NCBI GenBank assembly: GCA_026625185.1
Contig: CP113000.1
Span: 2,862,651-2,894,650 of the forward strand
From: Thermodesulfobacteriota bacterium
GTDB taxonomy: Bacteria; Desulfobacterota; WTBG01; JAGOGO01
Length of the DNA stretch: 32,000 nt
Direction: 5' to 3'
Made by a program: the position numbers and the translations under genes
Shown here: positions 3,505-12,484 of the stretch, piece by piece
How positions within the stretch are numbered: position 1 is the stretch's first letter
How the letters are laid out: each line of letters opens with the position of its first letter
Notes under the pieces: model-generated
Database searches by the model: none
Told to the model about the DNA's origin: nothing
The model's input: only the letters and a program-made list of their open reading frames with translations

Positions 3505-3553
3505 AAACCTAAACGCCGCTAATTTTTGAGCTGATGTCCTTGGTCACGGCTTA

Positions 3554-3606
3554 ACCCCGTTGCTTTTCGTTTTCAATTGGGTAGATCCGCCCCTAATGTT
3601 TTCCCC
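3554..3606. repeat. Repeat B, copy 1 (putative right end of the IS200-like element)
   Basis: ACCCCGTTGCTTTTCGTTTTCAATTGGGTAGATCCGCCCCTAATGTTTTCCCC aligns with 8424-8477 at roughly 75-80% identity by hand alignment, in the same orientation. Confidence 0.55.
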
Positions 3607-3664
3607 ATTTATGCATTTTATTAGTGGTCAATATTTTTAGTGTATTTTTTCATTTACTGGCGAT

Positions 3665-4137
3665 TTATAGACTAACACAGAGCTGAGTTGCCTCTCCGTT
3701 CGAAACCATGCGGTATCGCTATTTAGCTACCGTAGGTGACGCTATTCCACCGTTGGTGCCGCGCTCAATCACAACGATGTTATTATACCCTCTCCCAGTC
3801 TTCTATTTCTCCTTTATATATCCTAACCACCGGACTAGCCTCTGGTTTATTGATATCTTTGGAAACAGCTATCAAATGAATATGATTGGGCATAAGACAA
3901 TAGGCTCATATGGATACTTGTTTTAGGGAAGTGTGGGGGGGTGTGGGGCCAGTGTGGGGGTCGGGCCAAACAAGTAATCGATAATATTTTTAGGCCATAA
4001 CGTTTCTTGGCTTCATAAAGCCACGTTAGTCATCTCCGGCAATCCTTGGAAAATTTGAGCAGAAATTCCCTTTTATGGAAGCCGTGGGTGATATGCCATA
4101 TTTGCCCGGGAACATAATGTCTTTTAGCCCGTGCCAT
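3665..4137 (-). pseudogene. Y1 (IS200/RAYT-type) transposase pseudogene
   Basis: The minus strand from ATG at 4137 reads MARAKRHYVPGQIWHITHGFHKREFLLKFSKDCRR*LTWLYEAKKRYGLKILSIT[insert]TSIHMSLL.. This resembles the N-terminus of IS200-like/REP-associated Y1 transposases as I recall them (..HY.PG..WH.T.R.H.REFLLKF...W...L..AKKRYGL.IL.Y.VTSNHIHLL). Downstream there are in-frame stops and frame changes. Confidence 0.6.
3915..3976. repeat. 9-bp inverted repeat (TACTTGTTT / AAACAAGTA) enclosing a G-tract-rich triple GTGTGGGG repeat
   Basis: IR arms are at 3915-3923 and 3968-3976. Between them are G7 (3935-3941), G4 (3945-3948), G5 (3956-3960) and G3 (3963-3965), separated by 2-7 nt. This fits the G3+N1-7 quadruplex motif and is unique in this AT-rich window. 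Confidence 0.7.
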
Positions 4138-4171
4138 TAATCACCGTATATAACGTTATTTCACCTTAAAA

Positions 4172-4254
4172 AAATCAATATAAACCCAAATCCTCTCGGA
4201 TTTTGGAAATTATCATTTTTAATTTTAATTATTTAACTTGGCCCGATCCCCTAC
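4172..4254. repeat. Repeat A, copy 1 (putative left end/leader of the IS200-like element)
   Basis: 83 bp, 72/83 identical to 4628-4710 in direct orientation. It contains the hairpin CCAAATCC-TCTC-GGATTTTGG (4186-4206). On the minus strand it ends about 34 nt upstream of the transposase ATG. Confidence 0.75.
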
Positions 4255-4279
4255 ATAAATCACCCACCACTTTCTCAGA

Positions 4280-4585
4280 TTATTCTATGATATTTCCATT
4301 ACCAGTCTTCTTATAGTCAAGTTCGACAGAGTTTACAAATGCTATTCTGCCCACAGAATTAGGTAAAAATGAATGGGCTTTGCACCAGTCCTTAAATGTT
4401 TCTGGATCTATGTCAACACGAAGAGCAATGTTGTTAGCTCTTTTAATCTCTTCTAATTCTTTTTTGACAACAGCCTGCCAATCTTTATAGGTCGCAGGCA
4501 TATCTTTAGTATCTGTAAAGATGGTAAGTGCCTTATTATAAGTAAGATCATCCTTGTACCATCCAATTCCTATAATATCGTTCAT
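4280..4585 (-). CDS. Hypothetical protein (about 101 aa), no recognisable family
   Basis: ORF 4280-4603. GGAGG at 4597-4593 lies 7 nt before the ATG at 4585 (MNDIIGIGWYKDD...), so 4585 is the preferred start. It is preceded by repeat A2. Confidence 0.55.
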   Translation of the reverse strand: MNDIIGIGWYKDDLTYNKALTIFTDTKDMPATYKDWQAVVKKELEEIKRANNIALRVDIDPETFKDWCKAHSFLPNSVGRIAFVNSVELDYKKTGNGNIIE

Positions 4586-4627
4586 TCTCATACCTCCATT
4601 CATTTATGAGGTTCGTATGGGGAACCC

Positions 4628-9422: not shown

Positions 9423-10637
9423 TCATGGGGACCGGCTATCATATTTGGGCATCCTGTCTTCCGGACTTATCGCCAAGGCAGGCAGAACTTCTCTCGGAAT
9501 CATTTTCCCTTGGCCACAGAAGGGACAAGCTCGGGGATCTATTCCCGTAATCCGGGTCAGGAGATCCTCCCAGGTCTCTTTAGGGGATTCCTCCGCCTCT
9601 TCTTTGGTCAAGACTCCCAAAAGCTTCCGGCATCGTAACAGCCTCCTTGTGCGGCTTCGATTGCTCAAAGGGCCATAATGCCGAATCTTGACGAACTGAT
9701 CCGGTAAAACATGGAGTAAAAAACGACGGATGAACTCCATAACATCCAGGGTTAAAAGCTTGATTCGATCCCGGTCAGCCGAGTCCCGCCAGCGAAAACT
9801 CACCCGGTTCCCCTCCAAACTCACCAAACGATCATTGGAAAGAGCTACTCGATGCGAGTAACGACTCAAATACTCCATCACCTCTTCGGGTTTTTTTAAG
9901 GGAGGCTTACAGTAAACCACCCACGCTTGCTAATAAAGATCGGTCAAAAACCTTTGGAAGGCAGGAGCTTTTTGTAAGGCTTCTATTTTACCGGTAAACT
10001 TCAACTTGCCGGCTTCGTCGAGTTTTTTGAGGCCGTTTAAAAATTTACCTCGGAACAAGCACGACAGAACCTTCACCGGAAGAAAAAAGCCTGGCCGCGA
10101 ACAGATCCATCGTTTCCCATCCAAAGATAATCCCCCCGCGCTCACAAGGCAGTGAAGATGCGGATGGTCGATCAAGGTTTGGGACCAGGTGTGCAATAGG
10201 ACGGTAAATCCGATCTCTGCTCCCAAATATTTTTGGTCCTTAGCCAATTGCAACAGTGTTTCAGAAGCAGTCTTAAACAGAAGATGGTAAATCACCTTCT
10301 GATTCCTTAAAGCCAGGGACCGGAGGCTCTCCGGCAGGGTAAACACCAAGTGAAAATATGCAATCGGCAGCAGATCCTTCTTCCGGGCCTCCAATCACCG
10401 CTCCTTCTCCAAAAATTGGCATTTGGGACAATGTCGATTCCGGCAGGAATTATAGGAGACTTTCAACTGACCACAGTGATCGCATTGATCGATATGCCCC
10501 CCAAGTTCAGCCGTCCGGCAAACCTCGATGGCCCGCATGACCCGCAAATGACGAAGGGGCATCTCCGCACCATGAAGCTCCCGATAATCCGGCCCAAATC
10601 CCCGAAAAATATCGGCCACCTCTAAATACCCTTTCAT
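9423..10637 (-). pseudogene. IS91-family (Y2 HUH, rolling-circle type) transposase with two in-frame stop codons
   Basis: N-terminal Zn-binding domain (CDHCG...CRNRHCPKCQ), HUH motif (HPHLHCLVSAGG) and Y-x3-Y motif (YLSRYSHRVALSN). The three ORFs share one frame, interrupted only by TGA (10395-10397, where Trp is expected in ..ER*LEARKKDLLP..) and TAG (9930-9932, ..DLY*QAWVVYCKPP..). Confidence 0.85.
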
Positions 10638-10651
10638 GGAAAGCCACCCCT

Positions 10652-11506
10652 TTAATGGGTTGACTTCCCGGTTCTCTCCATAAGATCTAAGGGGCTGGTC
10701 ACGCCCCCTAAATTCTTTCGGCTCAGGTGAAGATAGATCGCCGTGGTTTTCGGGCTCGTATGCCCCAAAAGACGCTGAATATGGTAAAGATCGGTACCCG
10801 CTTCCAAAAGGTGGGTCGCAAAACTATGCCGCAGAGTATGCACCGAGGCGGCTTTCTTGATCCCGGCTTGAAGAACAATCTTTTCAAATACTCTCTGAAC
10901 AGCCGAAACGGAAAGAGCCTCATTCTCTGGTTTCGCTGGAAACAACCAGTACTGAGGCCGATACTCTTTCCAATACTCACGCAGAACTTCCAGGGTGCGT
11001 TGGGCTAATAAGGTATAACGGTCCTTCTGCCCTTTGCCCTGCCGGACTCGAATCATCATTCGCTGGCTGTCAATGTCCGAAACCTTCAAATGAACAACCT
11101 CGCTGACTCGCAGACCAGCCGAATAGATCGTCATCAGCAACGCTCGATGCTTCAGATTCCGGATGGCGGGAAAAATAGCCTGAACCTCCTGCGAAGAAAG
11201 AACCACCGTAAGTCTCTTCCCCATCTGCACCCGAGGAATCAGAAATCTATTCCAATCTCTCTTCAGGGTCGTCTCGTAATAAAACTTCAGAGCGCTATAC
11301 GCCTGACTGATACCGGACTGTGAGACCTTCTTCTTCTGAATGAGGTGATGAAGATACTCCCGAATCTCCACATCTCCCAACTCCTCCGGGCATCGACGAA
11401 AATGAAGAACAAAACTCCTCATCCAGGTCAAATAACATGTCTGGGTTCGAGGACTGTAATTCTTCAACTCCAAATCCATTTTCATCTGATCGTGTAACTT
11501 TCCCAT
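10652..11506 (-). CDS. Tyrosine site-specific recombinase (XerC/D-like 'phage integrase' family), of the kind found upstream of some IS91-family transposases
   Basis: 284 aa, intact. Motifs: [27 protein letters not shown] and LLGHTSPKTTAIYLHL (catalytic Tyr). Confidence 0.85.
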   Translation of the reverse strand: MGKLHDQMKMDLELKNYSPRTQTCYLTWMRSFVLHFRRCPEELGDVEIREYLHHLIQKKKVSQSGISQAYSALKFYYETTLKRDWNRFLIPRVQMGKRLTVVLSSQEVQAIFPAIRNLKHRALLMTIYSAGLRVSEVVHLKVSDIDSQRMMIRVRQGKGQKDRYTLLAQRTLEVLREYWKEYRPQYWLFPAKPENEALSVSAVQRVFEKIVLQAGIKKAASVHTLRHSFATHLLEAGTDLYHIQRLLGHTSPKTTAIYLHLSRKNLGGVTSPLDLMERTGKSTH

Positions 11507-11731
11507 GGCCGATCTCCTTTCTTGAAAAGTAGATTAAACAACTTCTACTTTTTAACAAAAAGGAAATGGCCTTGGAAGCGGCAATCAAATCAATGGATAG
11601 GAAGCCCCACAACAACAACTCATCGCCAGTTACTATTCAATTGTCAAAGAACGATTAGAAAAACCACCGCGAAGCGGTTTAGTTCAACTATTCATTATCA
11701 CAATTTATTTACATTATCACTCATTTTCACC

Positions 11732-11761
11732 AGGGTCTTATGCGGATCGGTATAAGACCCT
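11732..11761. other. Perfect 10-bp hairpin just 3' of the intI remnant
   Basis: AGGGTCTTAT (11732-11741) and ATAAGACCCT (11752-11761) with a 10-nt loop. On the + strand it is followed by a T-run (CTCATATTTTTT). Confidence 0.5.
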
Positions 11762-11771
11762 CTCATATTTT

Positions 11772-11990
11772 TTAGATCGTATCAACTGGGCTACGAATTC
11801 CAACCGGTCCACGATTAAGGACATGCGTGTAAATCATGGTCGTCTTCACATCCTTATGTACCAAAAGTTCTTGGATCGATCGAATATCATAACCACTTTC
11901 CAGTAAATGGGTTGCGAACGAATGCCGGAAAGTATGACAGGTAGCTCGTTTGGTCAATCCAGCGGTTGCAACTTGTTGTCTTTTCCGGGA
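11772..11990 (-). pseudogene. intI: Integron-type integrase (IntI) C-terminal remnant, about 72 codons; the N-terminal three quarters are missing
   Basis: ..[68 protein letters not shown]. The GYDIR.(I/V)[19 protein letters not shown](V/I)RSP.D tail is characteristic of IntI rather than XerC/D. The frame is closed by TAA at 11991-11993, and nothing similar follows upstream. Confidence 0.7.
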
Positions 11991-12484
11991 TTAGACATTT
12001 TCCCCTCAAATTAAAATCGTTATTTCGTATTTCTCCCTCAAAACAAAAAAAGGCCTATCGCTTTTTAATACAGCGAGTTGGTCTTATTTTATTTTCTTAT
12101 CGATTTTAAAAACTCTTCCCATCAAAGACACCCTTTTTCTTTTTTCCGCCTATCTTTTTTGGGTTTATACGGTTTATATTTTCCCTTTTTAATACTAAGT
12201 AAGGGAAATGTCAAGAAAAAAAATTGGATTCCTGGTCAAAGCCGGAATGACAAATAAAGTTAATTTTTCCAATTTATGATAGGCATAACAAAAATGACTA
12301 AAGTTGTACGATGAAAGGTCAAATGGTCTAAAAATCAAGGTCCGTGAACCGTAAAGAGTAACACGTGGAAAGGAAGGAATAAGAAAGACCGGTAATACCT
12401 AACGTTTTACGATTTACGTTTTAAGGAGAAGGAAAAAGAAAAGAGGGGAATTTAGATGGAGTGAAAGGGTAACTACCCCAAAAT

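Follow-up and report, generated by a model that had tools for sequence, protein, structure and literature searches.

Does the DNA that separates a multihaem cytochrome gene from an OmpA-family gene in a Thermodesulfobacteriota bacterium preserve the remains of an integron and, if so, of which type and in what state of decay? The locus, positions 3505-11993, lies in a window of 32,000 nucleotides (nt), by which we mean the whole stretch analysed: positions 2862651-2894650 of a 3.3-Mb single-contig genome (contig CP113000.1). Positions are those of the window unless given as genome positions. A preliminary description, made from the sequence alone, had proposed a possible decayed integron here, with a fragment of the integrase gene intI at the head of an array of short open reading frames (ORFs). 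Our analysis indicates that the locus is very probably what is left of a chromosomal integron with the 'inverted integrase' layout, a type that makes up one of three broad groups of IntI (PMC3575428). The components on which this interpretation is built are as follows.

11772 to 11990, minus strand: intI pseudogene, the last 72 codons and the stop, recognised by translation, profile scores and tree
11732 to 11761, minus strand: proximal palindrome of attI, AGGGTCTTATaccgatccgcATAAGACCCT, 16 nt past the intI stop, a presumed IntI binding site
9116 to 9170, minus strand: distal attI, with the hairpin or binding repeat GATTGTATCCGGA..TCCGGATACAATC, TTTATT and the core G/TTATGC (9116-9122)
8289 to 9115, minus strand: cassette 1, encoding a secreted protein of 183 amino acids (aa; ATG at 9052, stop at 8501), with attC1 (8289-8354)
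7571 to 8288, minus strand: first part of cassette 2, with ORF128 (7897-8283), the membrane-protein gene ORF96 (7582-7872) and the R'' end of attC2
5867 to 5926, minus strand: main part of attC2, with L box CAT[G]CAGCGGA..CCGCTGATG and R' box GTTCGGC
4841 to 5866, minus strand: cassette 3, a PAS-GGDEF diguanylate cyclase gene (4924-5826) with a canonical attC3 (4841-4915)
4704 to 4840, minus strand: cassette 4, about 137 nt without an ORF, with attC4 (4704-4763)

The integrase remnant and its clade

The intI stump covers box II, the region of the catalytic tyrosine and an IntI-type tail. About 250 N-terminal codons (78%) have been deleted and 72 of about 320 are left; the N-terminal three quarters of the gene are thus gone, as had been supposed, and an intact, functional integrase is no longer encoded. 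What remains belongs to the IntI subfamily. The stump scored 116.1 bits against the integron integrase model TIGR02249 and 86.4 bits against the IntI equivalog, compared with 73.9 bits for XerC and XerD, and a maximum-likelihood tree places it inside the IntI clade. This profile comparison, which the preliminary description had put forward as a check, upholds its assignment of the fragment to IntI rather than to XerC/D.

There might, nonetheless, be no integron at all: the fragment could derive from a Xer-like recombinase or from one associated with an IS91-family element, and the palindromes could be terminators or repetitive extragenic palindromic (REP)-type repeats between island genes. We regard this as highly improbable and as largely refuted. 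It draws some force from the recombinase of the adjoining IS91-family element, which itself scored 212 bits with the integron-integrase model (the range with this model and XerA is 212-214 bits). Over the same region, however, TIGR02249 positions 246-314, the stump scored 113-116 bits against 86.8 bits for that recombinase, and the stump groups with IntIs. The bearing of the attC sites on this alternative is considered below.

When the stump residues were scanned against 185,579 species genomes, 80 loci were obtained with 69-84% identity, distributed over Planctomycetota, Nitrospirota, Myxococcota, Spirochaetota, Cyanobacteriota and other phyla. To C-termini of IntI proteins that adjoin attC arrays the stump is 70-84% identical. 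Close intI relatives in other phyla are often short (94-209 aa; nine loci) and look truncated or frameshifted despite good attC arrays.

The preliminary description had noted that the array lies on the 3' side of intI in the same orientation, and had likened this to the 'inverted integrase' layout; the comparison holds. Layouts of the relatives were assigned with our own attC model, which gave attC matches at 31 of the 80 loci. At 20 of the 31, intI is followed on its own strand by the attC sites, the first of them 526-2483 nt past the stop, while 10 have them upstream on the opposite strand, which is the classical layout. The stump and a second intI pseudogene of the same genome (relic 2) both fall in a clade with 99/96 support, where each of the 11 remaining members has the inverted layout; a clade of their own (support 95/92) unites the 10 classical-layout IntIs. 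The array of our locus sits downstream of the stump on the same strand, so that intI faces the array and groups with IntIs of the same layout.

The attachment site and the cassette array

The position of attI beside intI and at the head of the array is indicated by sequence match to the clade relatives. In seven relatives from four phyla the motif TTATRCNGATCNGYATAA lies 9-22 nt past the intI stop; in the clade relatives the post-stop palindrome reads TTATGCNGATCCGYATAA, and in a third intI relic of this genome (relic 3) the palindrome is kept with compensatory changes. Further downstream the relatives carry TTATGCGGATC repeats at about +112 to +156, followed by ARTCTAATTATT and GTTAGGC, and the core context TTATGCGGATCAATCTAATTATT before GTTAGGC also occurs in the clade. 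In the window the corresponding distal end reads ...TCCGGATACAATCTTTATT followed by GTTATGC, stands 2.5 kb from the palindrome and directly precedes cassette 1. The 3.3-Mb genome contains a single match to a pattern derived from the relatives, CA[AG]TCT.{0,2}TTATTGTTA; it is the one at 9119-9133, minus strand. With the intervening IS91-family element removed, the distance from stop to core would be about 190 nt (about 117 + 75), against 150-190 nt in the relatives. The hairpin at 9129-9170 was also considered as an end of the IS91-family element, a reading that was rejected in favour of attI. A promoter consensus scan of the array head gave no convincing cassette promoter (Pc) and fewer sites than shuffled sequences.

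Four more copies of the 18-nt palindrome TTATRCNGATCNGYATAA are present at genome positions 521547, 1990752, 2806376 and 3019187 and may be further platform remnants. The genome holds two sequence types of attI, TTATACCGATCCGCATAA and CTTATACAGTCTGTATAAG.

These two halves of attI bear upon a second alternative, namely that the stump and the attC cluster are unrelated neighbours, brought together by rearrangement or by the IS91-family element. In its favour, the genome is heavily rearranged with respect to its congeners, the 2.5-kb element parts the stump from the cassettes, several attC clusters without integrase exist in the genome, and intact integrons of the class have the classical layout. 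We nevertheless consider it unlikely, for clade-typical attI halves flank the element with a spacing as in the relatives, the strand and order fit the layout of the remnant's own clade, and the genome-unique attI core stands exactly at the head of cassette 1.

For the attC sites two covariance models were trained independently, and both were validated on arrays outside their training and on control DNA. The first (R1) used 16 distinct attC sites of plasmid-borne class-1 integrons, in an alignment in which variable stems were cut to 60 columns and short spacers padded with N; alignment of full-length sites with MAFFT had misplaced the 3' boxes of the long sites and was abandoned for the trimmed one. 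The second (R2) used 51 environmental attC sites beside the IntI genes of the relatives, none of them from the host genome. R1 recovered attC sites on which it had not been trained, at 16-32 bits in a cyanobacterial plasmid integron, 15-34 bits beside intact IntIs of the host class and 16-53 bits beside the 80 relatives. As a control, 100 kb of control genome in an unfiltered search gave at best 13.3 bits with R1; in the R2 control two co-oriented sites 1 kb apart scored 22.4 and 14.3 bits and probably represent a further small attC cluster, the remaining matches reaching at most 10.8 bits.

In the window R1 scored 25.0 (4711-4751), 18.6 (5867-5931), 16.4 (8289-8354) and 13.2 bits (4842-4914), and R2 scored 50.9 (4841-4915; E 7e-10), 39.2 (5867-5931), 32.4 (4704-4763) and 20.2 bits (8289-8354). 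All four sites are on the minus strand in both models, and no other match in the window exceeds 8 bits with R1 or 10.5 bits with R2. The locus thus offers, with four sites, the two or more same-strand attC sites less than 4 kb apart, each after an ORF, by which an integron array is recognised; the attC sites, whose absence would have refuted the earlier reading, are detectable, co-oriented and clustered. They share the canonical plan, also seen in other attC sites of the genome, R''-5 nt-L'' (3 bp and an extrahelical base)...L'-6 nt-R'. In attC3, for instance, which reads GCCGAAC-AAACG-GCT[G]AAG...CTTAGC-TGAAAC-GTTCGGC, the 5' arm carries the extrahelical base. In attC1 the boxes are R'' TTCTAAC and R' GTTATAT, and in attC2 the R'' box is ACATAAC at 7574-7580, as obtained by reconstruction of a junction. 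The site attC4 has a strong L box and stem and degenerate R boxes, its R1 score reflecting a partial match.

The reading of these palindromes as terminators or REP-type repeats can now be weighed in full. A REP-linked type of gene, resembling Y1 transposases and REP-associated tyrosine transposases (RAYTs), does lie close by, and attC1 resembles a GC hairpin followed by T-rich sequence. All sites, however, are single-copy in the genome and form no repeat family, the sole similarity being that of attC2 to an attC at genome position 965994 (86% identity over 36 nt; 966-969 kb cluster), and REP elements were rejected for this reason. The GC-rich insertion sequence (IS) DNA within the interval yielded no attC matches, which argues against a simple composition artefact, and the R2 scores of 32-51 bits are at the level of attC sites from real arrays.

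Two other approaches were set aside. A hand-written finder (RYYYAAC...GTTRRRY with constrained folding) found real class-1 attC sites but was unspecific, returning about four matches per 10 kb genome-wide with no enrichment at the locus, and direct-repeat searches of the relatives' arrays gave nothing informative.

What the cassettes encode is in keeping with the earlier observation that the ORFs of the array, apart from the PAS-GGDEF gene at 4924-5826, have no Pfam or NCBIfam family. The cassette-1 protein has 230 uncharacterised homologues, none with a Pfam family. Cassette 2 encodes a soluble protein of 128 aa and a membrane protein of 96 aa, and for neither was a family found in Pfam or NCBIfam; the cassette-3 protein matches Pfam GGDEF at 148.7 bits, and PAS. 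It had also been stated that the non-IS ORFs from 4280 to 9052 share one strand and differ sharply in GC content from gene to gene, and both statements are correct (all minus; 0.31 to 0.54). Two ORFs lose their standing: ORF107 (4280-4603), which lacks an attC, cannot be shown to be a cassette, and the 82-aa ORF at 4694-4942 merely spans two attC sites. The statement that the ORFs are separated by attC-like palindromes stands for the four attC sites, but not for the 83-nt repeats that had been counted with them, which are the left end of a Y1 element.

Several points weigh against the interpretation of the locus as an inverted-layout integron. The region of the IntI-specific domain (about 35 aa, near patch III) is deleted in the stump. 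The intact IntIs of the host's own class show the classical divergent layout, which makes horizontal acquisition of the platform probable. With no second copy to define the ends of the IS91-family element, attI could be reconstructed only approximately. Our attC models are home-made and their E-values rough; attC1 is weak (16-20 bits), lacks the extrahelical base and has 8/7-nt spacers, attC4 is without recognisable R boxes, and attC2, when rebuilt by the 7/3-bp rule explained below, has its R'' ACATAAC 9 nt, not 5, from the L box. Finally, one DNA context of a cassette-1 homologue was inspected and contained no attC.

In its original form, the integron would have transcribed intI on the minus strand toward its own attI. 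In this attI a palindrome after the stop would have been followed by binding repeats, some 120-150 nt beyond it, and by a GTTRRRY core near +175 nt. Circular cassettes would have entered at this core when IntI recombined it with their folded attC sites, and successive insertions would have built an array reading in the direction of intI.

Decay of the locus and of related platforms in the genome

The further features of the window that are needed to describe the present state of the locus are the following.

9191 to 11654, minus strand: IS91-family element in the attI region, with Pfam domains Phage_integrase, Zn_Tnp_IS91 and Y2_Tnp; ends approximate
5927 to 7570, plus strand: IS1111-family IS inside attC2, with a DEDD transposase gene (6005-7051; NF033542, 185.7 bits)
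3700 to 4710, minus strand: Y1 (IS200/RAYT-like) remnant that ends the array, with left-end copies, ORF107 and a transposase pseudogene
12002 to 12263, minus strand: dispersed unit adjoining intI on the 5' side, where the gene is truncated; the deletion has its junction between 11990 and 12002
282 to 3504, plus strand: left border, a Lon-like protease and a multihaem cytochrome
12590 to 13261, minus strand: right border, an OmpA-family gene

At present intI has lost its N-terminal 78%, the deletion reaching as far as the dispersed, RNA-like unit; the IS91-family element parts the attI palindrome from its core; the IS1111-family element sits in the R'' end of attC2; the Y1 remnant lies over the R' of the last attC; and four cassettes are left. 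No intact IntI exists, as the whole genome has no TIGR02249 match above the family cut-off, and for this reason the array would be frozen. Any change in it would require an integrase from outside, and expression of the cassette ORFs would have to come from local promoters. The preliminary description thus judged rightly that an integron here would be inactive and CALIN-like, that is, like a cluster of attC sites lacking an integron integrase (CALIN), with two or more attC sites and no functional intI within 4 kb.

It was also right in counting three IS-type elements, which we identify as IS91/Y2, IS110/IS1111 and a Y1/IS200-like pseudogene. The IS91-family element has an intact gene for a tyrosine recombinase of 284 aa (10652-11506, minus strand) and a gene for a Y2 HUH transposase (9423-10637) that carries two in-frame stop codons. 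Its ends, about 11654 and about 9191, were placed from the end of the homology with relic 3, which in the window stops at about 11691, and from the flanking TAGTTGAAC and TAGTTCAAC; a search of 42 genomes of the class found no second copy. The recombinase lacks the IntI insertion, its match to the model falling into two stretches with profile positions 182-237 unmatched. It is a close structural cousin of IntI on a rolling-circle transposon, here inside attI.

Insertion at one end of attC sites is known for IS1111-family members (PMC11187229). The transposase of the element in attC2 has the Pfam domains DEDD_Tnp_IS110 and Transposase_20; non-coding DNA follows its gene on the 3' side, and the subterminal inverted repeats, each of 12 bp, lie at 5934-5945 and 7556-7567. 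With its ends placed by the 7/3-bp extension rule of PMC11187229, the element lies between the R'' and L boxes of attC2. The element hence combines the features of attC-targeting members: a DEDD transposase, subterminal repeats that fall in the range of 11-13 bp and are extended by 7/3 bp, non-coding DNA on the 3' side, and an attC end as the place of insertion.

The Y1 remnant comprises two left-end copies, the 83-nt repeats at 4628-4710 and 4172-4254, which enclose ORF107, and a transposase pseudogene running from position 4137 down to about 3700, which has a tblastx match to a PF01797 gene (E 2e-6, HUH motif covered). The repeats are assigned to the left end of this element, and are rejected as attC-like sites, because the homology between the copy called A1 and a third copy, at genome position 2697332, continues into the MARAK... 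start of the transposase. The end of the element overruns the R' of attC4. As an account of the array, the extent of 3505-11993 given earlier therefore holds for its right part but not for its left third (3505-4710), which is the remnant of a Y1 transposon.

Elsewhere in the genome, relic 2 (genome 2992715-2993438, plus strand) is a frameshifted intI pseudogene of about 195 aa that retains the IntI-specific insertion ALDRKYPHAP..W..FPQEKRW and has a 39.2-bit attC (R2) about 630 nt downstream on the same strand. Relic 3 (genome 2049960-2050119, minus strand) is reduced to about 26 intI codons; its DNA is 80% identical to window positions 11691-11848, the flank past the stop included. At least three loci (about 894.4, 965.1 and 3019.2 kb) keep just the palindrome after intI and the attI flank. 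A genome-wide census with R2 gave about 21 attC matches in roughly ten places. Integrase-less clusters include 965994-969043 (plus strand), 2760336-2761394 (minus), 1012691-1013751 (plus), 3199430-3201325 (plus) and 500026-501093 (plus); a 55-bit site at genome position 1013689 has a core almost identical to a clinical aadA-type attC. Altogether, the genome holds at least five or six decayed platforms and no live integrase.

Most of these decayed platforms are preceded by the dispersed unit, a sequence of roughly 180-220 nt in which about 130 conserved nt stand between a TTGACA-17-TATTAA promoter and an intrinsic terminator. The unit is present about 23 times in the host genome (among the copies genome positions 894244, 964873, 1084969, 2050163, 2352105, 2696205, 2762283, 2990946, 3019267 and 3038703) and 12-14 in each of two congeners; outside the genus none was found, and there was no Rfam match. 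The unit stands immediately upstream of two intI relics, the window stump and relic 3, and upstream of two or three loci at which just the post-intI attI flank is left. A co-oriented attC follows within 4 kb downstream of 9 of the 23 copies (chance 1.5% per copy; binomial P about 3e-11). We tentatively suggest, while thinking it doubtful, that the unit belongs to these integron platforms as an integral part not described before, and that it could serve as a regulatory or leader RNA for intI, or as a chromosomal docking point for insertion or duplication of the platform.

The same association invites a third alternative, in which capture of the cassettes took place not at this attI but at a secondary site, or at the unit's hairpin, the fragments of intI and attI being left from a separate event at the same hotspot. 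Besides the nine copies with a downstream attC, some of the unit-attC loci have no intI remnant whatever, and insertion at secondary sites is among the origins of CALINs given by Cury et al. (PMC4889954). Yet at 894 and 965 kb the unit is followed, about 40 nt on, by a relic-2-type palindrome and attI flank and then by attC sites, which speaks for platform decay, and in the window cassette 1 begins exactly at the attI core. We regard this alternative as highly improbable.

The comparison of the interval in relatives, which had been proposed in order to see whether it is conserved and syntenic, showed that it is not. DNA homology to three congeners ends at 3436 and 12585, at the flanking cytochrome and ompA genes, and the interval 3436-12585 is absent from all three. 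In two congeners ompA adjoins a pyrophosphate-dependent phosphofructokinase (PFK) gene; in the host genome the PFK gene lies 176 kb from ompA and is oppositely oriented, as would suit a large inversion or rearrangement that has the integron relic at one of its breakpoints. An attC, a Y1 left-end copy and a GC-rich decarboxylase gene lie in the region of the second breakpoint (genome position 2699150), where a search for the missing N-terminal codons of intI (about 2699 kb) found nothing. The host had been called unusual for an integron, a view that we do not share: its housekeeping proteins are 64-69% identical to those of 'Deltaproteobacteria/Desulfobacterota' metagenome-assembled genomes and about 55% identical to those of Geobacter/Desulfuromonas, and a Desulfobacterota-like host is not unusual for integrons.

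Two neighbouring features deserve mention. The multihaem cytochrome c gene at the left border (2783-3504, plus strand) is split into two overlapping frames, which the preliminary description attributed to a frameshift in an A-tract, and homology to congener DNA reaches about 3394-3436 in this region. Further along the window, a gene for a phage-type tyrosine integrase of 381 aa (27938-29083, minus strand) may mark another integrated element; no tRNA gene was found anywhere in the window.

Comparison with known integrons and mobile elements

Among the intruders, the element in attC2 resembles ISKpn4, ISPst6 and ISPa25 (PMC11187229) in its DEDD transposase, 12-bp repeats, long 3' non-coding region and insertion at the end of an attC, the comparison being one of features. 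It differs in residing in a Desulfobacterota-like host instead of a Gammaproteobacterium, and its rebuilt target has four extra nt between the R'' and L boxes. Like IS91 elements with an upstream tyrosine recombinase, the element in attI carries Zn_Tnp_IS91 and Y2_Tnp after a Phage_integrase/SAM_4 recombinase on the same strand. Unlike these, its transposase has two in-frame stops and its ends lack the support of a second copy; its recombinase resembles IntI without having the IntI insertion.

The locus shares with inverted-integrase integrons an IntI-type recombinase, an array that lies on intI's own strand and 3' of it, attC sites with R''/L''/L'/R' boxes and an extrahelical base, and short cassettes mostly without assigned function. 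It departs from them in its intI of 72 codons, the splitting of attI by an IS91-family element, its small complement of cassettes and its incapacity for autonomous action. The comparison with relatives yields an attI architecture for a widespread inverted-layout clade (palindrome at +10-20 nt, TTATGCGGATC repeats and a GTTAGGC core at about +175 nt) that can be used in annotating such integrons.

With CALINs (PMC4889954) the locus has in common its attC sites within 4 kb on one strand, the lack of a functional intI nearby and cassettes unrelated to resistance genes. Most integrase-less attC clusters give no hint of their origin: an intI pseudogene was present within 10 kb in 15 of 279 CALINs surveyed (about 5%; Cury et al. 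2016, PMC4889954). Here, in contrast, an intI pseudogene and an identifiable attI are present, so that the origin by loss of intI can be read directly. The one locus records the deletion of an integrase, the breaking of attI by an IS91-family element and of an attC by an IS1111-family element, and the truncation of an array by a Y1 element, and the genome around it is a useful case of how cassette reservoirs persist without a recombinase. Set beside these known systems, the locus is an ordinary but well-documented fossil of a known type of integron, whose value resides in the attI architecture defined with its help, in the RNA-like unit that heads the platforms and in an unusually complete record of decay.

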